Of a stretch of DNA of 26,073 nt, positions 3,534-25,946 are shown in pieces. Positions within the stretch are counted from its first letter, which is position 1. Every line of letters begins with the position of its first letter. The notes beneath the pieces are model-generated. The model was not told the DNA's origin and searched no databases. It saw only the letters and a program-made list of their open reading frames with translations. Source of the DNA: a bacterium. Lineage in GTDB: Bacteria > Hinthialibacterota > Hinthialibacteria > Hinthialibacterales > Hinthialibacteraceae. Position numbers and translations under genes: made by a program. The stretch is taken from positions 1 to 26,073 of the forward strand of contig JBHGBC010000082.1 in the NCBI GenBank assembly GCA_041946805.1, read 5' to 3'.

Positions 3534-3558
3534 TGATTCACCATTGTTGATCATAGAA

Positions 3559-9299: not shown

Positions 9300-9364
9300 C
9301 GAAGATCTCCTTACCAGTAATGGATATTTGGGTGGATTTCGCGGTGCTCAATCCACCCTGCAAT

Positions 9365-12334
9365 TTACTTCCATTGGCCTTGTGCGTACCGCACCAGGTT
9401 CAGCAGCAGGCGGCCGGCCGCGGGGTGTGCATCGCGGTTCTCCAAAATAGAGGGAGTACTGAGGATGAAGCATCCAGCCCCATGTTTATAAAGGGCGATC
9501 AACAGGCTCGATCCATACCCGCGCGGATAACTGGAATTGCCCGTGGCGAAGGCGGCGGCGATGGTCTCGTCCGGGGTGTCCTGTCCCTCGAACACCTCAT
9601 GCGGGATAACCGGCCCGTAGTAATCCCAATCCATGATGCCCGGCCCCTGCAATCCCTCGAATACCGGATGGCGCTGGGCCACGCACTCTTTGTGATACAA
9701 CCAATCGTTGAATGTACGGCAGACGCCCTGGTTCTTCAACGGCAGCCACTCCAGCGCTTTCGGATTTCGCTGGAATAACATTGGACTGAGAAAGATCACC
9801 CGGCCGCCTTTTTCCATTTTTTGCTTCAGGGCGTCCCAGAGCGGATAAGTTGCGTCCGCATAGCCCGGATTACCCACGAGGATGATTTCCTTTTCAATGT
9901 TCACATGCGGATCGAACGAACGGCAGCCCAGTCCATGTTCCGCCAGCCAATCGCCCGCCTGGGAATCCAATCCCCAAAGCGAGACATCACCCGTCATTTG
10001 GGGAAGATCATCCGGATTGGATACATGGAACGCCAGCCGGCCCCCGGTGGGCGCGCCGCCGCGCTCCAGGCTGGCGGCAAAGGTGTAAACGCCAGCGGGG
10101 CCTTCGATGGGAAATGTTTCACGAAGCACGGGAACCGCCAGCGCCGGTGGATCGGGGACTGTCACCGTGGCCGTTTTCTCCCATGCCGGGCCGTCCGGGC
10201 CGAACACGCGAAACCGCGCGGGATACACGCCCGGCGATAGTACATCCTCGTTGGCCAGCACCGCTTCGAGCGTGATCTCGCGCCCGGCGTACACATGCAT
10301 GGGTTCCGCGAAGAGGCACCAACGCAGCGGCGACCAGCCATCGGCCACGGCGTCGAAGACGGCCGGTTTCCACCGCCGCCAAAAGGTCCACAAGCCCTCG
10401 CCGGTCATGCCGTGATCGAGCATGCCCGTGAGGTTGTATCCGGCCAGTTGGGGATTGGAGCGCACGCAGTTGAATCCGAGCGTCCGCTGCCGGGCGTGCA
10501 GGCGCTGGCTTTCGCGCAGGAGATCCTCCGGGAACGGATAGACCTCCTCGAATCCCAGGCGCTTCCAATCGGCGGCGAGGGCCTCGCTTTGCTCGCGCAG
10601 CAAGGCCGCGTCCTCGAGATCGGGCCGCGCGCCGATTTGTTCGAAATGCCGCCATTCCTCGATCACGTTCATCTCACTGCCGATGCCGTACTCGGAGAGG
10701 AACACCGGCTTGCCCTCCCGCCCCAACTCGCGGAGGAACCGGTTGGTATCCGGCGTTTGCGGCACGCCCGGGTAGAAATGCGCGTCGCCCGCTTTCTCGG
10801 CATATCCTCCCCTCCCCAGTTTGGAAGGAACCGCGCCGGGACCTTCAACGCCCCAGACCGGCTCCCATTCGTTGCCGCCGGGATTGCTGGCCGATCCGAT
10901 GTCCCATTGCCCGTCCCACCGGCCGCTATCGAGCAGCACCAGCCGTGTGGGGTCCAATTTCCGCAGCGCGGGCAGGAATCCCGCCGCCTGCCGGAACACC
11001 GGGCCATCCTGGGTTTCATTGAGCAATCCCCAGATAACCACGCTGGGATGATTGCGGTCGCGGCGGATCATGGCCGAAGTGTTGCGGTCAAAACGTTCGG
11101 CCATTTGCGGCGAATCCTCCAACAACCAGCTGGCGAAACATTCTTCGTACACCAGGAGGCCCAGTTCGTCGCAGAGATCGAGCTGTTCGGGATACGCCAC
11201 CCCCGCAATGAAACGCACCATGTTGAAGCCCGACGCCTTGGCGTAGATCATGTCGCGGCGGCCCAGGTCTCCCACCACGCCGGCTTGTTGGCCCACCGGC
11301 ATGTGATTGCCTGTATGGGTGCTCTTCAAAAAGATCCGTTTCCCATTGAGATGGAAATATCCATCCACGACGCGGAAATCGCGAAATCCGCAACGCACGG
11401 AAAGTTGATGCGGCCGCCCCTCCGCGGCGGCCGTGGCCGCGATTCGATATAAGAAGGGATCCTCCAGGCTCCATAAACGCGGCGGGGCGATGGAGAGGAT
11501 GAATTCATGCTCCGACACTCCCCTGGCAAACTCCACCTGCTGTTCCGAGGTTTGCAACACATCCCCCCCGGCGGCCGGGGCGGCGGCCACCGAAAGAGTG
11601 CCGCGTACGGTCCCGGATCCCGCGTTGCGCGCCGTGACGGTCACGCCGATGTGGCCCGTTTTCACGTCCGGCCGGGCGAATAGGTCGGTGACATAAACCG
11701 GCGGGACCACGCGCAGCTCCACCGGGTATAGGATTCCGCCGCTGTTGTACGACCCGCCGCACATCGGGGGAATATACTTGTTGCGGTGCGGAGTTTGGTT
11801 CAACACGATGCCGTCGATGGGCTGATGCGCCGGATTCAGGACGCGCACGGCCAAGAGATTATCGCCTTCGGCGCGAATGGAATCCGTCACATCGAACTCG
11901 AAGGGCGTTTCTCCTCCCTCGCGGGCGCCCAGGTATACACCGTTGAGCCACACCTCTGCAAGATAATCCACCGCGCCGAACCGGAGCAGCACGCGATGGC
12001 CTTCCACCGGGCCGCATTGGCAACGGAAGGAATGCCAATACCAGGCCACGCCGTGATATCCGGGAAAGACCTGCTGGATCACACCGGGCACCGGCGCTTC
12101 TTCCACCTCGGGCCGTATGTTCTCAAACCACCGTTCCCCGCGGCCCCGGTTACCGGGATCGATTGCCAGCTTCCAACTCCCGCTCAAGGTTTGCGTGAAA
12201 GCGCGGTGAAGCAAATCCGCTTCGTCCGGCGTCCCGGTCGCCGCGGCTGGATTGCCCGCTCCCACCAGAAAGATCCCCACGGCCAACACGGCCGCCCATT
12301 GTGTTCCCCCCATCCGGATAGAATGTTTCATCAT
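9365..12334 (-). CDS. Glycoside hydrolase family 2 (beta-galactosidase/glucuronidase-like), with signal peptide and C-terminal accessory domains
   Basis: TLSGSW, GVAWYW, LRFGAVDYLAEVWLNG, PFEFDVT, LWSLEDPFLY, GFR...FHLNGKRIFLK, RDRNHPSVVIWGLLNE (acid/base), VFLSEYG (nucleophile); signal peptide AAVLAVGIFLVGAGNPAAA. Confidence 0.92.
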   Translation of the reverse strand: MMKHSIRMGGTQWAAVLAVGIFLVGAGNPAAATGTPDEADLLHRAFTQTLSGSWKLAIDPGNRGRGERWFENIRPEVEEAPVPGVIQQVFPGYHGVAWYWHSFRCQCGPVEGHRVLLRFGAVDYLAEVWLNGVYLGAREGGETPFEFDVTDSIRAEGDNLLAVRVLNPAHQPIDGIVLNQTPHRNKYIPPMCGGSYNSGGILYPVELRVVPPVYVTDLFARPDVKTGHIGVTVTARNAGSGTVRGTLSVAAAPAAGGDVLQTSEQQVEFARGVSEHEFILSIAPPRLWSLEDPFLYRIAATAAAEGRPHQLSVRCGFRDFRVVDGYFHLNGKRIFLKSTHTGNHMPVGQQAGVVGDLGRRDMIYAKASGFNMVRFIAGVAYPEQLDLCDELGLLVYEECFASWLLEDSPQMAERFDRNTSAMIRRDRNHPSVVIWGLLNETQDGPVFRQAAGFLPALRKLDPTRLVLLDSGRWDGQWDIGSASNPGGNEWEPVWGVEGPGAVPSKLGRGGYAEKAGDAHFYPGVPQTPDTNRFLRELGREGKPVFLSEYGIGSEMNVIEEWRHFEQIGARPDLEDAALLREQSEALAADWKRLGFEEVYPFPEDLLRESQRLHARQRTLGFNCVRSNPQLAGYNLTGMLDHGMTGEGLWTFWRRWKPAVFDAVADGWSPLRWCLFAEPMHVYAGREITLEAVLANEDVLSPGVYPARFRVFGPDGPAWEKTATVTVPDPPALAVPVLRETFPIEGPAGVYTFAASLERGGAPTGGRLAFHVSNPDDLPQMTGDVSLWGLDSQAGDWLAEHGLGCRSFDPHVNIEKEIILVGNPGYADATYPLWDALKQKMEKGGRVIFLSPMLFQRNPKALEWLPLKNQGVCRTFNDWLYHKECVAQRHPVFEGLQGPGIMDWDYYGPVIPHEVFEGQDTPDETIAAAFATGNSSYPRGYGSSLLIALYKHGAGCFILSTPSILENRDAHPAAGRLLLNLVRYAQGQWK

Positions 12335-12527
12335 TTTTCTTTTCCCGCCCTTTCTTTTTCATGGACTCGATCCCCGCGGAAGCCCCGCCCGGTTTCATCA
12401 TACCATGGCGCGAATCCAGATTCGCCGTTGGGGGGGATCGCGCTAATCAATCTGGATCATCCGGAAAATGCAGACCTCATGGGGATTCTGTTATTCTATT
12501 AACTTTATTGTTCGGGCAGGGAACCAA

Positions 12528-12560
12528 CCCTCTCCCTGCCCCTCTCCCGGAGGGAGAGGG
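12528..12560 (+). repeat. REP-like palindromic element (CCCTCNCCC..CCCTCTCCC-loop-GGGAGAGGG family), copy 1
   Basis: CCCTCTCCCTGCCCCTCTCCCGGAGGGAGAGGG; related copies at 22163-22195 (inverted) and 26034-26073; a degenerate hairpin follows at about 12571-12589. Confidence 0.75.
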
Positions 12561-12921
12561 AATCCTGATCTTCTCCCCGAGGGAAAAGGGATTTCGGGCT
12601 CTCTCCCACCCGCCGAAACGCGGTCCGGCCACACTCCCGGAAAAAAGAAAACACGTATCGGATGAGCCAAATATCCTGTCCTCCCTGAAGACCTGTTCTC
12701 AAGCACAGCCACTGCCTTGAAAAACTGTTCTTGAAAATATATTGACTTTCCAATTCATCCCCTTGATTATAGTCAGAGGATCAAAATCGGCGTATAAAGT
12801 CATTGGAACATATAGATTCCGGTTCGGTGAGGAAGGGCCGGCTCAATCCAGTCCGTCTCACCATTCCGGGATACCCCGGTGTCACGGACAAAGGGGATTC
12901 CGCGCGAACCGGGAGATGAGG

Positions 12922-12987: not shown

Positions 12988-15900
12988 ATGCGAAAACTGT
13001 TGCTGCAAGTTTTCAAGATCTATGAAGGGGAGGGGTACAAGGTTTTCCTGTTCGCTCTCGCGGGAGCCCTTCTGCATGCGGGCATTTCCATTGGATCGGT
13101 GGCGTCCGACGCCTTGTTCTTGACCCGCCTGGGCGCGGAGAGACTATCGTATATCTATTTTGTTTTGCCCGGCATCATGATCGCCGTGGCCGCGCCGCTC
13201 TCGTATCTGACCGGCAAATGGGGAGCCCACCGGATCCAGTTCCTCTCGTTCTTCGCTTTGTTGGGCGGCGGGGCGGTGATCACGCTGACATTGGCCCTGA
13301 TCAGCAGCCCCTCCAGCCATGCCGATTGGCTGTATTTCGGGATCAAGTTATATGCCTGCCTGTGGTCCATTCTCGGTTTCACCGTGTTTTGGAACTACGT
13401 GGACGCCTATTTCGATATTCTCAGCGCCAAGCGGCTGTTTCCCGTGCTCGGCGGGGCCACCACGTTCGGAGCGATGGCCGGCGGCTGGCTGGTCATGGTA
13501 TTCATGGACTACGGCTGGAACGTCAACGCCTTGTTCGTGATCGGCGGAATCACCGCCCTCCCGGCCTGCATCCCCGTGGCCGCGGCCTGCCGGTCCCTTC
13601 CCCCCAGCCGCGGATACGATGAGGAGGAACTCTCTTTTTCGCACCAAATGCTCCAACTGGCCCAGACGTACCGCCAATCCCGTTATGTGATCTTCCTGAC
13701 CCTCTCCACGTTCCTGATCATGATCGTCATGAATTTCTGCGAATTTCAGTACATGCGGATCTTCAATCAGCGGACGATCAGCGACACGGCGCTGGCCGCC
13801 TTGTTCGGCCGCCTGTTCCTGGTGGTCAACGTTTTCAATACCGTTTTCACTCTTTTCGTCTTCAACCGGATGATCTTCACCCTGGGCGTGCGCAACACCT
13901 CCCTGATCCAGCCCGTGGCCTATCTGGTGTCATTCGCGGCCTACGTGTTCCTGGGCGGATATCCCGGCCCGATGTACAACGCCGCGATTTTCGGTTTCTT
14001 CGTCCTGCAAGGCATTCACGCGGCCATGGAGGACAACAACTGGAATTTCATGCTGAATCCGGTTCCCCAGCGGGTGCGGCCGCCGGTGCGGGCCTTTTTG
14101 GAAGGCGTGGTGGATCCCCTGGGCGGGGCCGCCGCCGGATTTTTCCTGATCCTGATGAACCAGCATTGGCAATGGTCCCACACCCAGGTTTCCCTTTTCG
14201 GGACGGGGCTTTCCGGCTTGTTGTTGATCGCGGTGTTAGGCAAACGCCATTATTACATGAACACCCTCATCGAAAACCTCCGCGCCGAATGGTTGGATTT
14301 TTCCACCGCGGATCAAGAGATCTTCCCCGAACTGGAAAACGAAGGGCGGGAGGCGCTGGCGGCCATCAGCCAAGGCGATAACCTGGACGATGCGCGGCTG
14401 GCCTGTTGGATTCTCTGGAAAGTGGACCGTCTCCGGGCGGCGCCGTACATACTGGATTTACTCGAACGGTGCCCCCTCGAAAGCCGGCCGCCGGTTCTGG
14501 ACCTGGTTTCCGGAATCCTGGCGGAGCGGGACAGCGAAATCACCCGGCTGGTCATCGCCTGGATGATGGACCATCCCGCCGCCGTGAGTTCCGCCATGAT
14601 TCAACAACTCGGCCCCCACCGCCTGGTGCACGACGCCGCCGCCTCCCTCCTGATGCAATCCCCCGATCCCAACGAACGCGGCGCGGCCTCCACCGTCCTC
14701 TGGCACAGCTGGGACATCGACAACAACGCCCGGGCCATGGCGGCCACCCGCACCCTTCTGGAGGGGAATCCGGAAGAGCGGAAGGCCGGCATCCGAACCC
14801 TGGCCACCACCGGCCAATGCCATTACGCCCATTACCTCATCCCCTTTATTCAGGAAGACGATCCGGAAGTGCGCCGGACGGCCAAATGGGCGATTTGCCG
14901 CCTGGCGGACGAGGCCTCCAGCCGCGATCTGGGCACGGTCCTGGAATTCGCGCGCGAGGAAGATCCGGAAATCCGCGGCTTGGCCTTGCAAGCCCTCTCC
15001 CGGATCGGGGATTCCCAGAGCATCGCCCCCCTCCTGGGAATGGCGGACGCCTTTTCCCCCCACGAGCAGCGCCGCGTGTATCAGGTCATCATGGACATCG
15101 GCCTGCGCAGCATCCCCGCCATCGCGGGAGTGGTGCGGGATCCACACTATCCCTATGCCGGCCGGCGCATCGCCGCGCGCGCCATCGCCCGGCTGGCGTT
15201 TCCCCAATTGCTCTCGGCCATCCCCACGATCATCCAGCAAGAAATCCGCCGGGCTTATCAAATCCTCTGCTTTCACTCCGTCCTGGCAAACGTGAACTTC
15301 CCTTCCCATGGGATTCGGGTCCTATCGCGGTACTACCGGGACGAACAACAGGCCACGCTGGAGTTCATCCTGGAAATCCTGGCCCTGGGGGGGCAGATCC
15401 CCAGCCACGAGATGATCGCCTCGTCGCTGCGATCCAACAATCCCAAAATCCGCGGCGACGCGATCGAAACCCTCGAACAGGCCGTCAGCCGTCCCACCTT
15501 CCGCGCGCTTCTTCCCTTGGTGGACGGCCGCCCCACGGAAGACAAGATCCGCTTTTACTTCAAGCGCTTTCGCGCCGGAAAACTCTCCGCCTCCCAAGTG
15601 GTCGACCTCGCCTGGTCCAGCCAGGACGAGTTGGAACGGGCGGCCGCCGCGCAGACGTTGTGGGATTTGACCGGCGCCCCGCCGCACGCCCTGGGTGACG
15701 ATGATCCGCTCTCCCGGCCGAAGCCGGAGGTTTTGAACCGGATCACGGCAGGCTTGGACGGCGCCCCGCCCCTCCTCAAAAACCTCCTGTTCTCCATCCT
15801 GTTCCGGGAAGCCGGACGGGATGTTCCGGACACCTTGATCGAGCGGATCGCGCTGCTGGGCGAAAACGGGCTGTTCAGCGGCATCGGCACGCGGGAACTG

Positions 15901-16242
15901 GCGGTCCTGGCCGGGGGAATCACGCTCGTGTCTTATCCCGCCGGCGCTTATATCTATATGGAAGGCGATCCCGTGGACGCGGTCTATTGGATCCGGGAGG
16001 GTGAAGTGTTGCTGCGATCGCCGGCCCGGGTGGAAACCCGGTCCGCCGGCCAGAACTTCGGGGAAGAACTGCTGTTCGGAACGCCCCGCCGGCTCCAGGA
16101 CGCGTCCGCGGACCCCATGACCGGATACCGCCTGGACCGGGAGACGTTCCAGCACAATGCCCAGACCTATTCGCGGATTGCGATCGCCCTCTGGGAGCAC
16201 GCGATGCAACATCCGGGAATCCGGAAGGCGCACGATGGATAA
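12988..16242 (+). CDS. NTT/TLC-like MFS transporter fused to HEAT repeats and a C-terminal cyclic-nucleotide-binding domain
   Basis: About 12 TM segments with DALFLTRLGAERL and FWNYVDAYFDILSAKRLFPVLGG (TLC-type motif); HEAT-like DDPEVRRTAKWAI, EDPEIRGLALQALSRIGD, NNPKIRGDAIETLE; cNMP domain LIERIALL..LFS..YPAGAYIYMEGDPVDAVYWIREGEV..FGE..PRR. Start moved to ATG 12988. Confidence 0.88.
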   Translation: MRKLLLQVFKIYEGEGYKVFLFALAGALLHAGISIGSVASDALFLTRLGAERLSYIYFVLPGIMIAVAAPLSYLTGKWGAHRIQFLSFFALLGGGAVITLTLALISSPSSHADWLYFGIKLYACLWSILGFTVFWNYVDAYFDILSAKRLFPVLGGATTFGAMAGGWLVMVFMDYGWNVNALFVIGGITALPACIPVAAACRSLPPSRGYDEEELSFSHQMLQLAQTYRQSRYVIFLTLSTFLIMIVMNFCEFQYMRIFNQRTISDTALAALFGRLFLVVNVFNTVFTLFVFNRMIFTLGVRNTSLIQPVAYLVSFAAYVFLGGYPGPMYNAAIFGFFVLQGIHAAMEDNNWNFMLNPVPQRVRPPVRAFLEGVVDPLGGAAAGFFLILMNQHWQWSHTQVSLFGTGLSGLLLIAVLGKRHYYMNTLIENLRAEWLDFSTADQEIFPELENEGREALAAISQGDNLDDARLACWILWKVDRLRAAPYILDLLERCPLESRPPVLDLVSGILAERDSEITRLVIAWMMDHPAAVSSAMIQQLGPHRLVHDAAASLLMQSPDPNERGAASTVLWHSWDIDNNARAMAATRTLLEGNPEERKAGIRTLATTGQCHYAHYLIPFIQEDDPEVRRTAKWAICRLADEASSRDLGTVLEFAREEDPEIRGLALQALSRIGDSQSIAPLLGMADAFSPHEQRRVYQVIMDIGLRSIPAIAGVVRDPHYPYAGRRIAARAIARLAFPQLLSAIPTIIQQEIRRAYQILCFHSVLANVNFPSHGIRVLSRYYRDEQQATLEFILEILALGGQIPSHEMIASSLRSNNPKIRGDAIETLEQAVSRPTFRALLPLVDGRPTEDKIRFYFKRFRAGKLSASQVVDLAWSSQDELERAAAAQTLWDLTGAPPHALGDDDPLSRPKPEVLNRITAGLDGAPPLLKNLLFSILFREAGRDVPDTLIERIALLGENGLFSGIGTRELAVLAGGITLVSYPAGAYIYMEGDPVDAVYWIREGEVLLRSPARVETRSAGQNFGEELLFGTPRRLQDASADPMTGYRLDRETFQHNAQTYSRIAIALWEHAMQHPGIRKAHDG

Positions 16243-18580
16243 AAAACCGTATCGGATCGGTATTCAAACCCTGTACATGGCGCTGCTGCTTCCCCTGCTC
16301 GGCGTCCTGACGGTGGTCATGGCCGTGGTGATTCACAACGATCTGTACCGCCGGATCGAGGATGGATTCAACCGGAAATTGGAAGCCATCAGCCTGGCGG
16401 CCGGAGCCTTCCTGGACGGAGACCAGCAGGAGGATTTGCTGCGACCTCGAGTCCTGACCGGTCTTACGTATGTAACTTCCCGGGATGCGTTGTTCGCTAT
16501 CGACCGTGATCAAAAAGACCTCGTCCGGATCGATCCCGATGACGGCGGGCCTCACCGGATAGGCCCCACCGGCGCGGACGGTCCCCTGGCGCTGGCTTAC
16601 GATCCCGTCCGCGACGTATTGTACGGCCTCGAGCCGGCCGGCGGCCGGTTGATGACGTTGAATCCCGATACCGGCGAGGCCCGGCCGGCCGGTCCCGCGG
16701 TAGCGGCGGGCAGCGGGCTGGTCTTTCATGCCCGGGAAGGCGCACTCTACGCGAGCGGCGCGAAATGGCTCCGGTTCAATCCGAAAACGCAAACCTGGCT
16801 GCCTGTGGGGCCCATGGAAGGAGAAACGATCACCGGCCTGGCTTACGATCCGGTCCGGGACCGGATTTTGGCCCTGGACAACCAAGGCAAGCGATTGCTG
16901 TCGGTCGATTCCAAATCCGGCCGCGTGAAAGTCATCGGCGGTCTCTCGTTCACGGACGCCGGCCAGTCCATCCGGGAATCACTCCGGCAAGCCTACTCCA
17001 ACCCGGCGGACTTGGAGGAAGACTTGCGGCGGATCGAGGAGTACGACCGGCTGCGGGAAACCGGGAAACCGGAAGAAACCGCCGCGGCCTGGCATCGGAT
17101 CCGGAAAATCGCCGGGTACACGGTGGCCGAGCTCGACACCCGCGCGGAAGAAGAGGGTGAGCGTCCCCTGCCCCAGGCATCCGCAACCGATTTTCAGGGA
17201 CTGGCCTGGGATTCCCGCCAACAACGGCTGTTCACCTGCGCGGCCCGCCTGATCCGCGTGGATCCGGAGTCGGGATCGTGTTGGGAGACCGGCTGGTGGG
17301 ACCATTTCCGCAATGAGATCAGCCAACCGTACCTGGAAACCATCCTGCCCATGCGGCGTATCTGGAAAAAACTCAACATCACGTATCTCTGCACGTTCCG
17401 CCGCCCGGCGGAAGGCAGCTGGGATGACGAAGTCTACGTGCTGGATGTCGACTACGGGTCCAAACACGTGGCCATCGGCTACCGGGAATCCTTCCAGGAA
17501 GGGGAAGGAGCCTTGATCTATAACAAGGTGAATACCGGGGGTGTGTATACGTCCGGCATCACGAACTGGGGGGAATGGGGTCTGCTGAAATCGGGCTACG
17601 CGCCGATTTACAATTCCGCCAATCAGGTCTGGGGCGTCGTGGGAACCGACATCGATGTCTCCATTCTCGCCACCAAAACCCGCATGGTCCTGTTGAAGAC
17701 CATCGGGATCGGTTTATTCGCCTTCCTGCTCGCGGGCTTGATCGCATACGGCATCACGCTGGCCCTCCTGAAGCCGATCCAGCAATTGATCGACAAAACC
17801 CTGATCGTCGCCGCGGGCCGGTACGGGGAATGCGCTCCCCCCCAAGGACCAACCGAATTCCGCCGCCTCTGCCTGGCTTTCAACCAAATGAGCCAATCCC
17901 TGCAAACCTACTTTCAAGAAAAAATCCAGGCGAACCAGCGCCTGCAAGCCCTATCGGCCCGCCGCAAACTGGAAAGCCGGCTCCAGGAAGAGATCGGGCA
18001 AGAATCCGGTCCCGGGGTACTGGAATATACGGCCACTAGCTTTTGCGGCGCGGACCACTTCCACAACCTTTCCGGTTTTGTGAGTCTGCCGGGCGCCTTC
18101 CTGGCGTGGGCGGGTTTCCATGATGGAAACAGTTTGGAGGCGCTGAAGATCCACTGGATTACAACCCTCGCGGCGCGGGCGCTTCTCCGGCGGCACGGCC
18201 CCCATTGGGAGACCATTGCGCCGCGGCTGCGGGACTTTTATCCCGAAGCGATTGCCTGGTTTCTTCTCATGGATACGGGGACCGGCAGGACTCACTCGCT
18301 CCAGCGCCGTCCCGCCCATTATTTTTTCTGGGACCGGGAATTCTTGCGGCACTGGCCGGAGTGGGAAAATCAACCACGGATTTTGGAGCCGGGACAATTC
18401 CTGATTCTCAGTTCCATCAGCCCCGGACGCTGGCAAGGCATCGCGCCGGGCTTATTCACCGCGCCGGACCTGGATTCCGCCGGCCTGCGGAACTCGATCC
18501 GCGAATTTTTCCAACGAAACCTCCCGTCCGGGGAGTTCGAGAATCTCACCGTGACGGTGATCCAAAGATCCGGTTCATGA
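16235..18580 (+). CDS. Membrane sensor: TM - Cache-like domain with inserted beta-propeller - TM - HAMP - degenerate SpoIIE/PP2C-like domain
   Basis: TM1 LYMALLLPLLGVLTVVMAVVI; repeated GLAYDP-type blades; Cache-like EWGLLKSGYAPIYNSANQVWGVVGTDIDVS; TM2; HAMP KPIQQL..AAGRY..TEFRRLCLAFNQMSQSL; C-terminus ends ENLTVTVIQRS. ATG 16235 overlaps the upstream stop. Confidence 0.8.
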   Translation: MDKKPYRIGIQTLYMALLLPLLGVLTVVMAVVIHNDLYRRIEDGFNRKLEAISLAAGAFLDGDQQEDLLRPRVLTGLTYVTSRDALFAIDRDQKDLVRIDPDDGGPHRIGPTGADGPLALAYDPVRDVLYGLEPAGGRLMTLNPDTGEARPAGPAVAAGSGLVFHAREGALYASGAKWLRFNPKTQTWLPVGPMEGETITGLAYDPVRDRILALDNQGKRLLSVDSKSGRVKVIGGLSFTDAGQSIRESLRQAYSNPADLEEDLRRIEEYDRLRETGKPEETAAAWHRIRKIAGYTVAELDTRAEEEGERPLPQASATDFQGLAWDSRQQRLFTCAARLIRVDPESGSCWETGWWDHFRNEISQPYLETILPMRRIWKKLNITYLCTFRRPAEGSWDDEVYVLDVDYGSKHVAIGYRESFQEGEGALIYNKVNTGGVYTSGITNWGEWGLLKSGYAPIYNSANQVWGVVGTDIDVSILATKTRMVLLKTIGIGLFAFLLAGLIAYGITLALLKPIQQLIDKTLIVAAGRYGECAPPQGPTEFRRLCLAFNQMSQSLQTYFQEKIQANQRLQALSARRKLESRLQEEIGQESGPGVLEYTATSFCGADHFHNLSGFVSLPGAFLAWAGFHDGNSLEALKIHWITTLAARALLRRHGPHWETIAPRLRDFYPEAIAWFLLMDTGTGRTHSLQRRPAHYFFWDREFLRHWPEWENQPRILEPGQFLILSSISPGRWQGIAPGLFTAPDLDSAGLRNSIREFFQRNLPSGEFENLTVTVIQRSGS

Positions 18581-18969
18581 ATCTCATCACGCGAGTTTTT
18601 GTGTTGAAAAAAATCCCGCCGTTCCAGGAATTGCTGGACTCGGAGTTGTGCCTCATCGCCCGCATCGCCCGGTCCCGGCGGTATCCCCCGGGCGGAGTGA
18701 TCGCGGGCGCCGGCACGCCGCTCTCCCGGCTGTATATCGTGGCGGAGGGATATTTGCAATTGGCCGACGGGACGGTCCTGCCCCGGATTCTGGGCCTGGC
18801 CTCCCTGCTGTTCGAACAAACCGCACCCCTCGATGTCATGGCCGCCCCCGGCCGGGAAACGGTCTGCCTGACGATCAACAAGGACCACTTTTTCACGTTG
18901 ATTCATGAATGCCCCGCGTTTGTCCTGGGGCTGTTGCAACAAGTCTATCCTGAAAAGGTACTCCTATGA
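18577..18969 (+). CDS. Stand-alone cyclic-nucleotide-binding-fold protein (130 aa, degenerate phosphate-binding cassette)
   Basis: MNLITRVFVLKKIPPFQELLDSELCLIARIARSRRYPPGGVI..GTP..RLYIVAEG...CLTINKDHFFTLIHECPAFVLGLL. ATGA overlaps at both ends (18577-18580, 18966-18969); it is the C-terminal part of track ORF 18205..18969. Confidence 0.85.
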   Translation: MNLITRVFVLKKIPPFQELLDSELCLIARIARSRRYPPGGVIAGAGTPLSRLYIVAEGYLQLADGTVLPRILGLASLLFEQTAPLDVMAAPGRETVCLTINKDHFFTLIHECPAFVLGLLQQVYPEKVLL

Positions 18970-20468
18970 TTTCCCGGCTTTTCACGATGCGGATCCTGAC
19001 GCAGAACCTGTTGGTGGTGCTGCCCGTGTTTCTGGCCACTTATCTCTTCATCGGCGGAAGCTGGTATCTTTCCGCGCGCGAAGAGATGCTCTGGTCCGCT
19101 CAAAACGAGCTCGCTTCGTTCGCCGTCGCGATCGCGGAATTCCTGGATCCCGCCCGGCCGCCCATATCCCGCCCCGAAGCCGCATCCGACTCCCCCGCCC
19201 TGCCTGCGGTGGAGAACCGTCTCCTCCGGATTTTTTCGTACGGCTATTTGCGGTACCTGGCGGTCTTTCCCAAGGAGGGAACGCAGGCGTGTTATGAACT
19301 GGGAGAAAAACCGGCCCGGCCCCCCGATCCGTTTCTGCGGAACAGCCTTACCCGGCTGCGCACGCTGGCGGCCGGATCTTCCATCCGGAAAGAATCCACC
19401 GATACGGTGGTCCTGAGCGCGTTGCAACCGGGCGCCCAGGAAAACGAACCGGATACCATGACCGTGCTCGCTCCGGTTTCTGACGGACGGCAAAATCTGG
19501 CGGCCATTGTATTTCTGGAAAAGGATGTATCCAGCCTCTCCCGCCAATCCGCCGGAATCCTCTCCCAGTTGCTCAAAATGGGGATTCTGGTGGTGATGGC
19601 CGGCGCCGCGGCCGCCGGATTGTTGTCCTACCTCGTTCACCGTCCCACCCAACGCCTCACCAGCGCGCTTTTGGCGTGCGTGGAAGGCCGGCGGGATTAC
19701 CTGGCCGAAGACGCCCCCATCCGCGAATTCCACGGCTTGAGCAACACATACAACACCATGGTCAGCGTCTTGAACGAAGCGGAAGGCCGAATCAACCAAA
19801 ACCTGGTCGCCTGCGAATATTTTTTCTCCAATACCGATCTGGCCTGCGCCTTCCGGGACGCGTTTTTGCGGCCGGTCGTCATGGAACGGGAATCGATCTC
19901 CGCGGTGGGCTGCATGTACGGAAATTGTTCGCGCGACTTCTTGGCCCTCGACGCGGGAAACGGCGTGACGTGGGGCGCGGTTTGCCGCTTGAGCGAACCG
20001 TCCGGCGAAACGTCGGACTGGGCGGCGGGCCACCACGGACCTCGGGACCATCTCCGGTACCCCCGGGATTGCGATATTCATTCGACTCTGTCCGCCGCCT
20101 GCTTCTCCACTCTCATCCGGGAGGAGCTCGATCGGGGCGATCCCCAGGGCGGCTTGGACAAAGTGACCGGACTTTTCGAGGTAAGTTCCTTTCATTACAT
20201 TCGGATTCACGAGGCGGCCGGCCGGTGTGAAACCTGGAGCTGGAACCCGGTCTCCCGGCGCCTGGAGCGGAACGAGGAATTCATGCCGCAAGGGGTGTCC
20301 ACCGTCCTGCATACCTTTACGGGAAAAGCCGCCGAGCGGATCGAAGTTTATACCCGGCTCTTCAGCGAATTACACCCCCAACAATTGCTCCAGGAACTGG
20401 TCCGTTCAATCGGCGATGATCTGAACGGCTCCCTGGTCATCATCCGTCTAAAGAAACCGGATTCGTGA
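18966..20468 (+). CDS. Membrane sensor: TM - extracytoplasmic domain - TM - HAMP - degenerate SpoIIE/PP2C-like domain
   Basis: TM1 LLVVLPVFLATYLFIGG; TVLAPVSDGRQNLAAIVFLEKD (Cache-like last strands); TM2 GILVVMAGAAAAGLLSYLV; HAMP RPTQRL..IREFHGLSNTYNTM; C-terminus PQQLLQELVRSIGDDLNGSLVIIRLK. Confidence 0.75.
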   Translation: MISRLFTMRILTQNLLVVLPVFLATYLFIGGSWYLSAREEMLWSAQNELASFAVAIAEFLDPARPPISRPEAASDSPALPAVENRLLRIFSYGYLRYLAVFPKEGTQACYELGEKPARPPDPFLRNSLTRLRTLAAGSSIRKESTDTVVLSALQPGAQENEPDTMTVLAPVSDGRQNLAAIVFLEKDVSSLSRQSAGILSQLLKMGILVVMAGAAAAGLLSYLVHRPTQRLTSALLACVEGRRDYLAEDAPIREFHGLSNTYNTMVSVLNEAEGRINQNLVACEYFFSNTDLACAFRDAFLRPVVMERESISAVGCMYGNCSRDFLALDAGNGVTWGAVCRLSEPSGETSDWAAGHHGPRDHLRYPRDCDIHSTLSAACFSTLIREELDRGDPQGGLDKVTGLFEVSSFHYIRIHEAAGRCETWSWNPVSRRLERNEEFMPQGVSTVLHTFTGKAAERIEVYTRLFSELHPQQLLQELVRSIGDDLNGSLVIIRLKKPDS

Positions 20469-20485: not shown

Positions 20486-20908
20486 TCAGGGGATGGCCCC
20501 CAATTGGCGCAGCAGGCTGAAAACATCCGGCACGGCCCAGCTCTCGGCCACCTGGCCGCTTTCGGTGAAGCGCCAGATATCCACACCCAGGTAACGGACG
20601 TAGCGGCCGGTCTGGGGAATCCCCAGGTACTCCCCGGAATGGGTCCCCACGGATTCCCAGTAACACCAGACCTTGTCCCCTTCCCCTGATAGATCCAGGA
20701 TGTTCATCCGGCCGTCGGGAAAGGCGTTCTGCCACCGGACAACCATTTCGGCGAAACCGGACCGGCTTACCGGTTCGGTCAGGGGCGAAACGTGAAAATG
20801 ATAATCCTCGGTGAAGCAGGACTCGATGGTCCGGGCCGACCGTTCCCGGTCATGCCACACCCCGTCAAACAGCGCCTGAAATGCCGCCCGGTTATCCTCG
20901 GCTTCCAT
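20486..20908 (-). CDS. SnoaL-like ester cyclase / NTF2-fold protein
   Basis: AFPDGRMNILDLSGEGDKV, GTHSGEYLGIPQTGR, DIWRF..GQVAESW...D..LLRQLG; start ATG 20908 with GGAG RBS. Confidence 0.9.
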   Translation of the reverse strand: MEAEDNRAAFQALFDGVWHDRERSARTIESCFTEDYHFHVSPLTEPVSRSGFAEMVVRWQNAFPDGRMNILDLSGEGDKVWCYWESVGTHSGEYLGIPQTGRYVRYLGVDIWRFTESGQVAESWAVPDVFSLLRQLGAIP

Positions 20909-20922
20909 GCTTGTTTCTCCGT

Positions 20923-22095
20923 CTAGCCAGTGGGCAGAACGCCGGGACCGGGAATCTGCTGGCTCTGAAGGAGCGCGCGGTGGTCGTCGATATACTGCCC
21001 GGCGTTGCCGTACTCCATCTTTTTCACTTCGAACGTGGGAATGGCGGGGCTGCCGTATTGCAGGAAATCGTTGGGATACCCCCATTGGACGATGGGTGAA
21101 GCCAGCGCGGGCAGGCTGGCCTCATCCAGCCGTTGCACCTGCTCCGGCGTCAGGGTGAACTCCAGGCAGCCCAAATCCTCCCGCATTTGTTGGAGCGTCC
21201 GGGCGCTGAACACCGGAATGGTCACCCCGGGCTTTTGCCGCAGCCAGTTGAGCGCGGCCTGAACGGTGGGCCGGCCGATTTCATCCGCGATCCGGTTCAC
21301 CTTTTCCATGATGGCCCGGTTCCGCTGTTCCACGGCCAGGAAGAAATGCTTCTTGGCCGGGTCTAGAATGTCTTGCAGCCGGTGAGGTTGGCCTGGATCC
21401 AACGCTCCCCGGCTGTATTTTCCCGTGGCCATTCCCCCGGACAGGGCCGACCAACACAGAACAGCGATGTCCAGGTGAAGCGACATGGGAATCTGGTCCC
21501 GTTCGGCGGTGCGCTCCACGAGGTTGTATTCAATCTGATTGGCGGTGAATTCCGTCCATCCCCGGAAATGGGCCACGGTGTTGGCCCGCGCGATCGCCCA
21601 GGCGGGCCAGTTGGAGCAGCCGATGTAGCGGACCTTGCCGGCCCGCGCCAGGTCATCCAAGGCGCGCATGACCTCCTCGGCGGGCGTGAGGGGATCCCAG
21701 ATATGCACATACAGCAGGTCGATGGAATCGGTTTTCAACCGCCGCAAACTGCCCTCCACCGACCGGACCAGGTTCTTCCGGTGACTGCCGCTGCCGTTGG
21801 GATTGTCCAAATTGGAATACAAGTCATAGAGAGTGAATTTGGATCCCACCACGAAATAATCCCGGTCCGAGGCGATACATTCGCCCACCAGCTCTTCCGA
21901 TTGCCCCTCCTGGTAGCGGTTGGAGGTGTCCACGAAGTTCCCCCCGGCTTCGGCGAAGGCGTCGAAGATCCGGAAACTCTCTTCCCGGTCCGATCCGATC
22001 GGCCCCCAGTTGGTCCCGAACGTGCCCGCCCCCAGGCACAGTTCGGATACCCGCAGCCCGCTTTTCCCCAATAGTTTATACCGCATTTGAGGCAT
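20923..22095 (-). CDS. Aldo/keto reductase (aryl-alcohol dehydrogenase-like)
   Basis: LGKSGLRVSELCLG, GGNFVDTSNRY, GSKF, SLRRLKTDSIDLLYVH, GKVRYIGCSN, QIEYNL; D/Y/K/H tetrad present; GGAGGTG RBS. Confidence 0.93.
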   Translation of the reverse strand: MPQMRYKLLGKSGLRVSELCLGAGTFGTNWGPIGSDREESFRIFDAFAEAGGNFVDTSNRYQEGQSEELVGECIASDRDYFVVGSKFTLYDLYSNLDNPNGSGSHRKNLVRSVEGSLRRLKTDSIDLLYVHIWDPLTPAEEVMRALDDLARAGKVRYIGCSNWPAWAIARANTVAHFRGWTEFTANQIEYNLVERTAERDQIPMSLHLDIAVLCWSALSGGMATGKYSRGALDPGQPHRLQDILDPAKKHFFLAVEQRNRAIMEKVNRIADEIGRPTVQAALNWLRQKPGVTIPVFSARTLQQMREDLGCLEFTLTPEQVQRLDEASLPALASPIVQWGYPNDFLQYGSPAIPTFEVKKMEYGNAGQYIDDHRALLQSQQIPGPGVLPTG

Positions 22096-22162
22096 GGTGA
22101 TTCACCTCCAGGTGATCATTTCCGTCTTTCTGATAACCAAGTTTGGCCTTGATATCTCAATT

Positions 22163-22245
22163 CCCTCTCCCTCTGGGAGAGGGTTAGGGTGAGGGAAAGC
22201 CTTTAACCATGTCCAGCACCCCGGCCTTCTCCCAAAGGGCGAGAA
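22163..22245. repeat. Pair of REP-like palindromes in opposite orientation (copy 2 plus a degenerate partner)
   Basis: CCCTCTCCCTCTGGGAGAGGGTTAGGGTGAGGG (22163-22195) and CACCCCGGCCTTCTCCCAAAGGGCGAGAA (22217-22245). Confidence 0.75.
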
Positions 22246-22383
22246 TAGGAGTGCATTCCATCTCTACATTCCCGGGGCGTCGCTCCTGGGCTAGCTTCTT
22301 ACGCGCATTTGACGCTTGAAAACAGCCCATTTAGTACTCTACATAATGACACCGGGCGGGCGTGGCCCATCTCTGCCGGCTGG

Positions 22384-23217
22384 TCAGAACGTATACCGGA
22401 TACCGAACTCACCCGCGTGGACATCGACGTTGGCTTGGTTGGGATAGCCTTGAAATACCACCTCGACCTTATCCGACGTGAAATACCGGTAACCCGCGAA
22501 GAGCTCCAGATGGTCCATCAGCTGGTAGTTGAAACCCAGTTTGAACTGCATCGCGCCGACAAAACTGGTGTCTTGGTTCATCGGGACTGTCTCTTGCCCG
22601 TAATAGGGATTGGCCGAGCCGTCGGGGAACGCCGGCGTGTTGTAGAGATAATTGAGCGTGGGAGTCTGGAAATCATCCAGAATCACTTGGGAACTGCCCA
22701 CCCCGAATCCCACGTACGGATGGAATTTCGATTCTCCGATGTTGAAATCGAACAGGACATTGAACATGAACGCGTTGATGTCGAACGAGGAATCCAGCGT
22801 GTCTTCATAGGCGGGAACGGGAAGGCCCTTGAGGAAAATTTCATCCCCCTCGTTGTGATACCGCGAATATTCGAACTCGAAACGCAACGTGCCGATGGAA
22901 TACGGCGGCAGTTTGTATCCCAGGGCGGCGCTCCCCACGATGCCGGGCGCGAATTCCAACACGCCGTCCTTGTCGTCGGTTTTCGCCCGGAATTCCGGCC
23001 CCACGCTGAGGCTCATATAAATCCCCTGGTACCATTCATCGTATCCATAACCACTCTGGCTTTCGCCTTCCGCGGATGCCAAAACATCCGCCGTGGAAAT
23101 CAATACATCTTCCGCGGACACCCCCCCTCCCAGGAAAAATAACAGCGCCAAAACCGCGAGGGTGATCCCCGCCGGCCCTTGGAACCTCTTCCCTGTTACT
23201 GCGTTGGCTTTTATCAT
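22384..23217 (-). CDS. Outer-membrane beta-barrel protein (OmpA-TM/opacity/Msp2-like, probably 8-stranded)
   Basis: Signal peptide ITLAVLALLFFLGGGVSA; GSAALGY, LRFEFEYS, FMFNVLFDF, FHPYVGFGVG, QFKLGFNYQL, LFAGYRY, C-terminal GIRYTF. Start at ATG 23217 with GGAGG RBS. Confidence 0.88.
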   Translation of the reverse strand: MIKANAVTGKRFQGPAGITLAVLALLFFLGGGVSAEDVLISTADVLASAEGESQSGYGYDEWYQGIYMSLSVGPEFRAKTDDKDGVLEFAPGIVGSAALGYKLPPYSIGTLRFEFEYSRYHNEGDEIFLKGLPVPAYEDTLDSSFDINAFMFNVLFDFNIGESKFHPYVGFGVGSSQVILDDFQTPTLNYLYNTPAFPDGSANPYYGQETVPMNQDTSFVGAMQFKLGFNYQLMDHLELFAGYRYFTSDKVEVVFQGYPNQANVDVHAGEFGIRYTF

Positions 23218-23352
23218 GGTTGATTCCTCCCTGTTGAGTTCATGTCTGGCCAATTGAACGGGCGAATCCCTGGCCTCCGGCCGGGAAGCGCCCGGATGGT
23301 CTACTTCAGCGAAAAAAGATCCGGCACGGCTTCCGGCACGGTTTTCGCAATC

Positions 23353-24894
23353 CTACAGGTCTTGCCGGATCATCTCCACCGCTTTTTCGCCGATCATGTA
23401 CGCGGCGGCGCAGGTATTGGCGCTGACATCCGCGGGCATGATCGACGCGTCCGCCACCCGCAATCCATCCACGCCATGCACCCGCAGCCGGGGATCCACC
23501 ACCGCTTGGGCGTCGAGGCCCATCTTGCAGGTTCCCACCGGATGCCAAATGGTCCAAATGTCGTTCCGGATATAGTCCCGCAGTTCCCGTTCCGTCTTGC
23601 GGGCGCCGGGCAACGCTTCCCCGCCCTGAAAATCACGGAAGGCTTTCGCGTGGATCAGTTCCCGGCAAATTTCAATGCCCCGCATCTGCACTCGGATATC
23701 CGCCTCGCATTGCAGAAAATTCCCGCGGATCACCGGCGGATCCTGCGGCCGGTTGGACCGCAGCGTGACGCTTCCCCGGCTCTGCGGCCGGACCAGGATG
23801 CTCATGAAAGTCACGCCGGGGCCTCGGCCGGGATAATCCGGCGGCAGGGTCACCGGATTCGTGGCGTTGAAATTGATTTGCAGGTCCGGCGCGGCGGCCG
23901 GCAATCCCTCCCGGGTGTGGACCAGCACACCGGCCTCGGCCAGAAACAGCGGCACGGGTTGTTCCTTCACGCAATCAAAATGGAGCGGCAGACGCAGATG
24001 GTCCTGGAGGTTCTGCCCCACTCCCGGCAAGTCCACCACGGGCGGGATCCCCATCGCCCGCAAGTGCGCGGCCGGACCGATGCCGGACAGCATCAACAGT
24101 TTTGGGGATTCGAAGGTCCCCGCGGCGAGAATCACTTCCCTCGCCACCGCCGCTTCCTGGCTGGAGCCATCCTTCCAATATTCCACCGCCTTGACGCGGC
24201 CGTTGTCCATCACCAGGCGCGCGGCTTGCGCGAAGGTTTCCACTTTCAGGTTGGAACGGCCCAAAACCGGGGTGAGAAAGGCCGAGGCTCCGCTGCTCCG
24301 TTTTCCGTCCCGGGTGAGGTTGAATTGATAGATCCCCGCGCTGTCCGCCGTATCGCCCGTGTTGAAATCCCAATCCCGCCCGCCGCGGAATCCAAGTTCC
24401 ACTCCGGCGTCCACGATCGCCAGGGCCGCGGGCGAAGGCGTGGCGTAATCGCACACGGACAGCGGCCCACCCGCGCCGTGATATTCCGAAGCCCCGCCCT
24501 CGTAATCCTCTGATTTTTTGAAGAAGGGCAGAACCTCGTCAAAGCTCCACCCCTCATTGCCACGATAATTCCAATGGTCGTAGTCCAGCCGGTGGCCCCG
24601 GATGTAGATCATGGCGTGGATCGCGCTGCCCCCGCCCAGCACCTTGCCCCGGTTCAGGGGCAGCCGCCGGCCTCCCAGGTATGTCTCCTCCTCCGAAGCG
24701 TAATTCCAATCCACCTCCGATCCCCACAGCGACAGGACGGCGGCGGGATTGTGGATTTCCGGCCGCTGGTCGGGCCCCCCCGCCTCCAGCAGCAGCACCG
24801 AAACGGAGTGGTCTTCCGTGAGCCGGTGGGCGGCCACACAACCGGACGGGCTGCCCCCGATGATGATGTAATCGTACGTTTTGGATTGGGTCAT
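23353..24894 (-). CDS. GMC (glucose-methanol-choline) oxidoreductase
   Basis: YDYIIIGGSPSGC, VLLLEAGG, RGKVLGGGSAIHAMIYIRG, EVILAAG..SPKLLMLSGIG, GVGQNLQDH, WHPVGTCKMG, GLRVADASIMP, ANT. Confidence 0.95.
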   Translation of the reverse strand: MTQSKTYDYIIIGGSPSGCVAAHRLTEDHSVSVLLLEAGGPDQRPEIHNPAAVLSLWGSEVDWNYASEEETYLGGRRLPLNRGKVLGGGSAIHAMIYIRGHRLDYDHWNYRGNEGWSFDEVLPFFKKSEDYEGGASEYHGAGGPLSVCDYATPSPAALAIVDAGVELGFRGGRDWDFNTGDTADSAGIYQFNLTRDGKRSSGASAFLTPVLGRSNLKVETFAQAARLVMDNGRVKAVEYWKDGSSQEAAVAREVILAAGTFESPKLLMLSGIGPAAHLRAMGIPPVVDLPGVGQNLQDHLRLPLHFDCVKEQPVPLFLAEAGVLVHTREGLPAAAPDLQINFNATNPVTLPPDYPGRGPGVTFMSILVRPQSRGSVTLRSNRPQDPPVIRGNFLQCEADIRVQMRGIEICRELIHAKAFRDFQGGEALPGARKTERELRDYIRNDIWTIWHPVGTCKMGLDAQAVVDPRLRVHGVDGLRVADASIMPADVSANTCAAAYMIGEKAVEMIRQDL

Positions 24895-24927
24895 GGTTTC
24901 CCCTCCTGGTCCCTGGGCAAGCCGCCC

Positions 24928-25356
24928 TCAGCGCAGCGGTTGCGGATTGTCCTCTTCGGTGAATCCTTGCGTGATTTCCAGTATGTTTCCCTCGGGATCC
25001 GCGATCCACACGGTTTTCCATCCCGGGATACAATCGTCAAAACTCAAGGGCCCCAGGGTGACGCGGGCCTCTTCGCCCATCTCCGCCAATTTCTTCTCCA
25101 CGTCCGGAACCGTGAACGCCAAATGCCGCCAGCCGGGATAGGCGGGGCCGTCTTGTCCGGCCGGCGGGACCGGCCGTTCCCCCTGCGCCTGGAAGATTTC
25201 CAATACGAGAGAGCCCGACCTCGTGAACACGATCTGCCCGTCTCCCAGGGGAATCACCCGGACACGCCGGAATCCGAAATGTTTTGTATAGAAGCGCTCG
25301 GTTGCCAAGGGATCCTGGCAGGTCAAGCCCACGTGCGCGAAAGTGATGTCCGTCAT
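24928..25356 (-). CDS. VOC / glyoxalase family protein
   Basis: FAHVGLTC..ERFYTKHFGF, LEIF, RHLAFTVPDV, WIADPEGNILEI; H/E/H/E metal ligands present. Confidence 0.92.
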   Translation of the reverse strand: MTDITFAHVGLTCQDPLATERFYTKHFGFRRVRVIPLGDGQIVFTRSGSLVLEIFQAQGERPVPPAGQDGPAYPGWRHLAFTVPDVEKKLAEMGEEARVTLGPLSFDDCIPGWKTVWIADPEGNILEITQGFTEEDNPQPLR

Positions 25357-25946
25357 GGTTTGGATCTCCTGTTTTTTTTCTGGGCTGCCAGAATTTCAAG
25401 GAGGGCGCGCGCGAAAACGTGGCAGTGGCCTCCCGAACGCGCTGTCACCAGATCGCCGTCCACCACCACGTCCTGGTCCGTGTAAATCGCCCCGTAGGCT
25501 TTCGCGTCGCCGATCAGATTGTTATGGACCACCAGACGCCGTCCCTTGACCAAGCCGGGGATGGGCGCGGCCAGCCACAAGCCATGGCAGATGATGCCTT
25601 TCACGATGCCCTTCTCCCGCATCGCCCGCCGCAGAAATTCCGTGGCGGGCGGGACCTTGGCCGGATCCTCGGTGTACCGCAGCCGGTCGGAGACCATGCC
25701 GGAGGGTACAATGATTGCCGCGTAACTCCGCAACGCCGCGTCGCTCATCTCCTCGAAGCTCTCCTGGCATTCGAAGGGAATGTGATACTCGTGTCCCTTG
25801 AAGATCAACGAGGGCTGTCCCCACAAGCGGGTCAGGAAGTGGACTTCCATCTCCTCTTCCGCGAACCGGTGCTGGTAATACCAGATCTCCGGTTCATAGA
25901 AGTCGCTTTCGATCAATATGCCGATCTTTTTCCCCTTTAATTTCAT
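25353..25946 (-). CDS. DJ-1/PfpI (ThiJ) family protein
   Basis: KKIGILIESDFYEPEI, AAIIVPSG, GIICHG (Cys-His), VVVDGDLVTAR; start ATG 25946 with GAGGTG RBS; ATGA overlap with the VOC gene. Confidence 0.92.
   Translation of the reverse strand: MKLKGKKIGILIESDFYEPEIWYYQHRFAEEEMEVHFLTRLWGQPSLIFKGHEYHIPFECQESFEEMSDAALRSYAAIIVPSGMVSDRLRYTEDPAKVPPATEFLRRAMREKGIVKGIICHGLWLAAPIPGLVKGRRLVVHNNLIGDAKAYGAIYTDQDVVVDGDLVTARSGGHCHVFARALLEILAAQKKNRRSKP

Follow-up and report, generated by a model that had tools for sequence, protein, structure and literature searches.

The 26,073-nucleotide window analysed here, which makes up the whole of contig C297 in a 6.7 Mb bacterial genome (97% complete), carries on its + strand four overlapping genes, A to D, that are inherited as one strictly conserved unit. 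Gene A (12988–16242, 1084 amino acids (aa)) encodes an NTT/TLC-like MFS carrier followed by HEAT repeats and a terminal cyclic-nucleotide-binding (cNMP) fold. Genes B (16235–18580, 781 aa) and D (18966–20468, 500 aa) encode membrane receptors whose PP2C-fold tails have no catalytic motifs, and gene C (18577–18969, 130 aa), placed between them, encodes a shortened cNMP fold. We favour, at a probability of roughly 40%, the reading that the four products form one complex in which the receptors, and so a ligand, gate a carrier of some solute other than a triphosphate, because active signalling domains are absent from the constant core and within it only the carrier looks active. Domain searches found no kinase, regulator, cyclase, sigma factor or DNA-binding domain in A–D, in agreement with a first-pass annotation of this DNA, which had seen no kinase, response regulator, cyclase, sigma factor or DNA-binding protein in the operon.

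We determined how constant the unit is in three samples. Full-length A was present in 6 of 40 genomes of relatives; a GTDB scan (best 80 of 125 matches) gave 74 loci, of which 71 were used once 3 duplicate relatives had been set aside; and a metagenome scan (best 80 of 107 matches) gave 73 loci, near-copies included. Contig ends cut 33 of these 150 loci too early, which left 117 with room (6 from relatives, 64 from GTDB and 47 from metagenomes). All four genes were present in 117/117, in the plain order A-B-C-D in 112, as B-C-D-A in 2 and with a second A after D in 3; A-B-C-D was complete in 6/6 relatives with full-length A, and no locus with at least 4.5 kb after A missed any of the four. Among 35 genomes of the phylum, profile searches with C and with D each picked out exactly the 7 that A had picked out. 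A search with C in 81 genomes of another family detected it in 6; B-C-D stood together in 5/5 newly found C-anchored genomes, with A too in 4/4 that had room. This neighbourhood test, with which the C- and D-anchored searches agree, bears out the first-pass claim that the genes form one unit; by record labels, the loci span about 15 phyla.

The overlaps described in the same annotation are present in the sequence as claimed: A and B share 8 nt (16235–16242), and the B/C and C/D junctions are ATGA overlaps at 18577 and 18966. With gene starts chosen by script, the B–C spacing was −4 in 45/64 loci, the C–D spacing was −4 in 37/55, and A and B overlapped in 58/66, so that all three junctions are family traits. 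D has an alternative ATG at 18987, in line with the start of most homologues. Distribution is patchy, and the unit was not found in a genome of the same genus (G001, 98% complete). It occurs in the cultured non-pathogens Novosphingobium mathurense, Sphingomonas sp. Root710, Phenylobacterium kunshanense and Pseudomarimonas salicorniae, and on a plasmid of Sphingomonas paeninsulae in the annotated order porin, hypothetical, PP2C, A, B, C, D, STAS, kinase, SET, decarboxylase. Distance matrices of A–D correlate with rho of 0.63–0.78 (0.46–0.73 without the alphaproteobacteria), related loci not being independent. At two classic NTT-HEAT control loci (L022, L023) only a cNMP gene adjoined, and a quick tree of A, built with no single-domain NTT outgroup and showing long branches, split 38 module carriers from 6 classic NTT-HEAT rows by a 100% branch. 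No paralogue of A, B, C or D was detected by tblastn elsewhere in the source genome.

The carrier domain of A (12988–14298, aa 1–437) is the most constrained part of the module. In Pfam, A matched HEAT_2 and cNMP_binding above cut-off and MFS_1 weakly; its HEAT repeats extend over aa ~438–900 and its cNMP-fold domain over aa ~945–1070. Searched against the PDB, a profile of 37 A membrane domains had CpNTT1 (9J3N) as its sole transporter match (E value 3.8e-8), and TLC was matched by 19/37 members (E value ≤ 0.01), the A of the source genome itself being unmatched. The NTT-HEAT-cNMP architecture given in the first-pass annotation therefore stands: the NTT domain is fused to HEAT, and the cNMP fold occurs both fused (A) and separate (C). 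Invariant or near-invariant positions are D41, K120, W135, D139, K148, R149, E252, N350, N351, N353, R368 and E372, and the cavity has invariant residues of its own, with Asp, Glu and Asn prominent among them.

This set differs from that of the ATP/ADP carriers. According to the accessible text of two papers, AtNTT1 needs K155, E245, E385 and K527 to bind or exchange ATP/ADP (PMC3306366, PMC10654386). A keeps only the equivalent of E385 (E252, 71/73). With the AtNTT1 positions mapped by motifs via CpNTT1 and by hand-counted spacings of 90 and 140 on a plant NTT1, the K155 stretch holds a Lys in 1/73 sequences and the E245 equivalent is Glu in 1/73; the K527 equivalent, located by motif and spacing only, is basic in 0/73. 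Compared with the canonical NTT/TLC carriers (CpNTT1, AtNTT1), to which its fold is homologous and with which it shares the E385 equivalent and the F-W and A-K-R motifs, A thus lacks three of the four key charged residues and the R..K pair of helix 1, has a long cytoplasmic tail and belongs to free-living hosts. We conclude that ATP/ADP transport by the A of this module is unlikely, judging from its sequences. Nucleotides other than ATP/ADP are possible, since some microsporidian NTT sequences, in the part of that paper available, deviate at key charged sites too (PMC10654386).

Two further arrangements of carrier genes were seen. At L125, L127, L128 and L129, all from one metagenome, a second A follows D, and an FGE-sulfatase-domain gene is present. 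At L138 (16793–19973), D is followed directly by a classic NTT-HEAT gene and by a cNMP gene of canonical appearance, so that two NTT-HEAT systems adjoin.

Gene B encodes a first transmembrane helix (TM1), an outer Cache domain with an inserted propeller, TM2, a HAMP domain, a signalling helix and the PP2C-fold tail (18020–18577). Pfam matched HAMP in B and nothing in D; the Cache domains and PP2C-like tails were identified by structure prediction and profile comparison, on models with a mean predicted local distance difference test score of 89.9 (B) and 90.7 (D). The five-bladed beta-propeller (16442–17290, residues ~70–352), which the first-pass annotation had overlooked, is closest in fold to glutaminyl cyclase (Z 20.4) and YjiK (Z 20.1) and is optional, with a gap fraction of 0.55 over 58 loci. 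D shares B's plan without the propeller: TM1, a degenerate Cache/PAS-like outer domain, TM2, HAMP-like helices and a tail at aa 301–498. Both tails resemble the RsbU domain of Rv1364c (3KE6), that of B with Z 13.5 (root-mean-square deviation (rmsd) 3.7, 189 residues aligned) and that of D with Z 16.9 (rmsd 2.5, 172 aligned); the D tail also matches RsbX (Z 15.6). In the Atlas, the B domain lies near Cache families and the D tail near SpoIIE only.

B and D are paralogous (hhalign 99.9%) and are homologous over sensor, HAMP and tail (hhalign 99.7% and 99.1%) to a third paralogue that often flanks the module, an active Cache-HAMP-SpoIIE phosphatase receptor that we call E. The first two PP2C motifs (GGDxY and DVSGKG-type) are present in 71/71 E sequences, 0/114 of D and 0/67 long sequences of B, and the last catalytic motif in 70/71 E. 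Loose TDG and DDxT patterns occur in 10 and 16 of 114 D and in 8 and 1 of 67 B, and the catalytic columns of D aligned to E hold Arg, Leu/Phe and Gly. By these motif counts, B and D are pseudo-phosphatases, as the first-pass annotation had proposed; they derive from an RsbU-like receptor and are no longer catalytic. The B sensor (17318–17668) is a single Cache domain in which Y401, D404, H411, W448, G449, K452 and D472 are near-invariant (60 sequences), and this pocket is probably a ligand site; no solved relative was found by sequence for it or for the E sensor. It looks as though B is the ligand-binding subunit and D a structural partner.

Gene C keeps the cNMP fold in shortened form, with a conserved C-terminal K-x-H-F-x-T...E-C-P hinge, and falls just below the Pfam cNMP_binding threshold (27.3 against a cut-off of 27.5; E value 3.6e-6). 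Cyclic-nucleotide pockets rely on a Glu and an Arg of the phosphate-binding cassette. The pocket Glu is present in 2/70 C sequences, the aligned column lists no Arg (13/70 have one a residue later), and the R-S/T-A motif occurs in 0/70. In A, the cNMP domain (15820–16197) of the source copy does have G-E and Arg, but the family keeps Glu in 17/41 and Arg in 18/41 sequences, has zero columns at 90% conservation, and has lost the domain in 21/22 alphaproteobacterial members. Cyclic-nucleotide sensing by the module is therefore unlikely, and C is probably an adaptor. It is fused to B in one locus (L084, a single metagenome-assembled genome (MAG)).

We mapped mean conservation per region over 58 loci. 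It was highest in the carrier (0.56, with 50 columns reaching at least 90%) and the B Cache domain (0.55, 12 columns), followed by the distal HEAT region of A (aa 691–860, 15058–15567; 0.52, 18 columns), the TM1 regions of B and D (0.52) and C (0.51, 11 columns). It was low in the cNMP domain of A (0.32), the D tail (0.27), the D outer domain (0.26), the B tail (0.22) and the propeller (0.17). In alphaproteobacteria, B measures 362–446 aa in 21/22 sequences, the propeller and most of the tail being gone. Given this pattern, coupling via the membrane helices, HAMP, C and distal HEAT is more likely than coupling via the tails, and distal HEAT is the likely docking surface. The first-pass annotation had the PP2C tails as main docking parts, which their low conservation and the losses from alphaproteobacterial B do not support.

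We therefore picture A–D as one inner-membrane complex in which the carrier would be the working output and the rest non-catalytic control. B and D would pair as an asymmetric HAMP dimer, with the B Cache pocket taking up an outside ligand and D serving as structural partner. The signal would pass via the conserved first TM helices and HAMP to A, C would be clamped on the distal HEAT region as an adaptor, and transport of a small non-triphosphate solute would be opened or closed. Our best guess for that solute, a speculative one, is an amine or an adenosyl metabolite of the S-adenosylmethionine (SAM), S-adenosylhomocysteine and methylthioadenosine class, because the cavity is lined by acidic and amide residues and because SAM-dependent methyltransferases, SAM decarboxylase and a LysA-like decarboxylase recur next to the module. 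Among loci of at least 15 kb, a LysA-like decarboxylase or a SAM enzyme is found in 25/29 alphaproteobacterial and 19/30 other ones. The post-translational gating of the first-pass annotation survives in part: an enzyme-free relay is plausible in a core without active signalling domains; one that works via the tails or a cyclic nucleotide is not supported. An E-type receptor was not found in 5 of the 7 module genomes of the phylum, three of which are 96–98% complete, so that the core would need an output of its own, for which the carrier is the only active-looking candidate.

Several points weigh against a gated carrier. The contacts, ligand, substrate and direction of signalling are all inferred. 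Conservation of the cavity in A is not proof of transport, as carriers that only sense exist, UhpC being an example. Among loci of at least 15 kb (29 alphaproteobacterial and 30 other, split by record titles), E or a cyclase flanks the module in 29/29 and 17/30, respectively, and a reverse flow of signal fits this too. The genomes without E are MAGs with completeness of 77–98%. As for the substrate, 4 of the 30 non-alphaproteobacterial loci have none of the scored accessory genes, and in the source genome neither a SET gene nor SAM decarboxylase was found, nor any close orthologue of the decarboxylase (best 32%). A complex prediction of A (aa 440–1075) with C and the D tail (aa 275–498), scored on the D tail, returned 0.00 twice and gives no evidence either way.

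The frequent presence of E with STAS and RsbW-like genes, or of a cyclase, next to the module, which the first-pass annotation had overlooked, means that the signal may run from carrier to receptor. A would then be a trigger carrier, and B and D dead co-receptors that control active E (elsewhere a receptor with a cyclase or a tail like that of methyl-accepting chemotaxis proteins (MCPs)) and hence a STAS/RsbW switch, in the manner of DctA/DcuS. We regard this as the next candidate, tentative but not far behind, and it may hold together with gating. The full-length homology of B and D to E and the intact motifs of E speak for it, as does the neighbourhood: E flanks the module in 29/29 alphaproteobacterial and 10/30 other long loci, STAS and RsbW-like genes in 26/29 and 4/30, and the E-type sensor is joined to a cyclase in L044 and to an MCP-like tail in L137, L142, L143 and L155. 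The GGDEF gene that precedes A in L140 lacks the sensor of E. In the source genome, an icfG-like cluster on contig C275 (L110, 9097–16841) comprises a Cache-HAMP-SpoIIE phosphatase (E), an RsbW-like kinase, STAS, GlgX, a second STAS and an AGE-family epimerase, which is the gene set of icfG in the available portions of its descriptions (PMC12329169, 10.1101/2021.07.28.454097). Against this account stand the five phylum genomes in which no E was found; strong E in just 7 of 25 further module genomes, picked for having none in the fetched locus; and E-type sensors in genomes without the module (G010, G018). Of 41 genomes, just 2 have the epimerase, and these are 2 of the 7 module genomes; it is present in 3/55 GTDB loci of at least 15 kb. 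We accordingly rejected E as an obligate fifth gene, and likewise obligate linkage to the icfG-like cluster.

A self-made signal loop, in which a LysA-like decarboxylase and methyltransferases would make a methylated amine that A exports and that B (and E) sense outside in a quorum-like manner, seems unlikely to us. The decarboxylase is present in 39/55 long GTDB loci, often directly upstream of A together with methyltransferases; it has Asn in place of the Cys of the LysA C-E-S-G-D motif; and aromatic and acidic residues are conserved in the B pocket. However, the 39 loci are mostly those of related alphaproteobacteria, the methyltransferase type changes with lineage (SET, class I, HemK-like or NNMT), no solved relative hints at the ligand, and the enzymes are missing at many loci and were not found in the source genome, for which reason an obligate decarboxylase/methyltransferase set was rejected. 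At some of the GTDB loci with the decarboxylase (L036, 6687–7880, and 38 others), it is fused to a methyltransferase domain of the SET or class I type.

More doubtful still is the version proposed in the first-pass annotation, in which a carrier of ATP/ADP or another nucleotide is gated jointly by the receptors and by cAMP or cGMP. NTT ancestry, the G-E and Arg of the source A and the cyclases at 9/55 long GTDB loci are in its favour; A with one of the four key NTT residues, C without a pocket and the dispensable cNMP domain of A are at odds with it. That annotation was thus right in its observations, in the single unit and in the pseudo-phosphatases, and its nucleotide and cyclic-nucleotide ideas conflict with the sequences of the family. 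The weakest option is a co-regulated operon with no single physical complex, A with C and B with D being separate pairs under shared regulation: A+C-type pairs without B and D do exist (L022, L023 and the second pair in L138; also in the accessible text of PMC5381601), but B and D have no catalytic output and yet are never missing from the 117 loci, C lies between B and D rather than beside A, and the overlaps are conserved.

Parts of the module have known counterparts. UhpC/UhpB and LysP/CadC are secondary carriers paired with membrane receptors. The receptors of these pairs and of DctA/DcuS have an active kinase or DNA-binding output, whereas those of the module are dead and its carrier is equipped with HEAT repeats as a scaffold and with an adaptor. 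In DctA/DcuS, as described in the available text, the partner of the secondary carrier is a membrane receptor with an outer sensor domain (PMC4280142). An obligate active sensor of that type was not found here, with no E-type partner in five of the seven phylum genomes, a count limited by MAG incompleteness.

NTT-HEAT and NTT-HEAT-cNBD proteins (cNBD, cyclic-nucleotide-binding domain) were described in 2017 by Major, Embley and Williams as uncharacterised, with a proposal of cAMP-tuned ATP uptake; the architecture of A is the same, with the cNBD adjacent or fused (PMC5381601, in its accessible text). The statement in the first-pass annotation that such fusions are known yet functionally uncharacterised agrees with that source. 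Its data set includes a Novosphingobium pentaromativorans NTT-HEAT protein with an unfused cNBD, in which we recognise A-clade motifs by eye, and its main text names no HAMP or PP2C partners (PMC5381601). The module differs from the 2017 proposal in the loss of the ATP residues and cNMP pocket and in having two dead receptors as constant partners.

In Chlamydia trachomatis, RsbU (CT588) has a single dead paralogue, CT589, a membrane receptor with an outer sensor and a PP2C-like tail without metal-binding residues that adjoins the active paralogue and a STAS/RsbW switch, according to the part of the report available (PMC4552016). The module has two dead paralogues to this one, a comparison made by description only. 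The same species has an uncharacterised NTT-HEAT gene, again from the accessible text (PMC5381601). The icfG cluster of Synechocystis (slr1852–slr1862), with an AGE epimerase, two STAS, GlgX, PP2C and an RsbW-like kinase, is likened to our loci by gene content: icfG-type genes, which are optional neighbours, flank the module in L036, L040 and L042 and sit on C275 of the source genome, and the core A–D does not appear in the icfG descriptions as far as they are accessible (PMC12329169, 10.1101/2021.07.28.454097). A switch of the icfG type needs an active PP2C, STAS and an RsbW-like kinase, none of which belongs to the core, although they are frequent neighbours. We found no description of B and D as NTT-HEAT partners, of the four-gene unit, or of a characterised system matching the operon in the literature searched, in which subscription journals were mostly outside coverage. 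The four-part unit is apparently undescribed; what is new is the unit and not its parts, as all the folds are known, the A+C pair was published in 2017 and the mechanism is inferred.

Other genes recur around the module. A Gcw_chp/TorF porin lies near it in 18/29 alphaproteobacterial and 7/30 other long loci. A conserved hypothetical protein of ~265 aa (L064, 7456–8256, and 27 other loci) is convergent on E in alpha- and gammaproteobacteria; it looked cyclase-like by eye and was rejected as a cyclase, with no match to Pfam or to a cyclase profile. An ABC exporter, an SPFH/Band 7 protein, a solute-binding protein and, once, DUF697 were seen at L019, L021, L037, L056, L138 and L239, and a polyketide synthase near L020. 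Weak matches to a pentameric ligand-gated channel domain adjoin the module at L126 (1346–2515; E value 7e-5) and L017 (5976–7031; E value 0.006).

Within the window, a run of genes on the − strand (20486–25943) is convergent on the module: DJ-1/PfpI, glyoxalase, GMC oxidoreductase, an outer-membrane beta-barrel, aldo/keto reductase and SnoaL. SnoaL and the aldo/keto reductase are downstream of the module in L016 too. The DJ-1/PfpI gene (25353–25943, −), accessory and outside the core, is 74% identical to the DJ-1 gene of icfG-like clusters that flank the module elsewhere and belongs to the same gene set. Upstream, the genes at 2358–7109 and 7275–12334 are unrelated to the module; they include a sugar transferase, a flippase-like membrane protein (by eye, without a Pfam match) and a double alpha/beta hydrolase, and two glycoside hydrolases (GH36-like and GH2) lie on the − strand. 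Short dispersed repeats occur at 12526–12570, at 22160–22183 and at both contig ends, and a join of C297 to C275 was not demonstrable; the repeat at 12526–12570 had 468 blastn-short matches on 188 contigs of the source genome and is probably a REP-like element. The only promoter candidate, a sigma-70-like site at 12742–12770, was dismissed as chance level (1 found, 0.7 expected), and a defence role was dropped, PADLOC having yielded only weak HEAT matches.

For NTT-HEAT proteins, cAMP-controlled movement of ATP was guessed in 2017, and the sequences of the module clade argue against both elements of that guess. The module gives NTT-HEAT two constant partners and a conserved predicted ligand pocket, and so makes its role testable in cultured bacteria. 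Two dead phosphatase receptors strictly linked to a carrier over about 15 phyla match no described system that we found. A bolder version, which we consider improbable as a whole, is a mobile pseudo-enzyme machine in which a dead RsbU heterodimer and a dead cNMP adaptor would mechanically couple an outside ligand to a retuned NTT-derived carrier of an amine or adenosyl metabolite made by the neighbouring decarboxylase and methyltransferase genes, with swappable outputs (a phosphatase partner switch, a cyclase or an MCP-like tail). If this were true, a simpler form of the same machine would account for the NTT-HEAT, cNMP and CT589-like genes that are orphans in chlamydiae.

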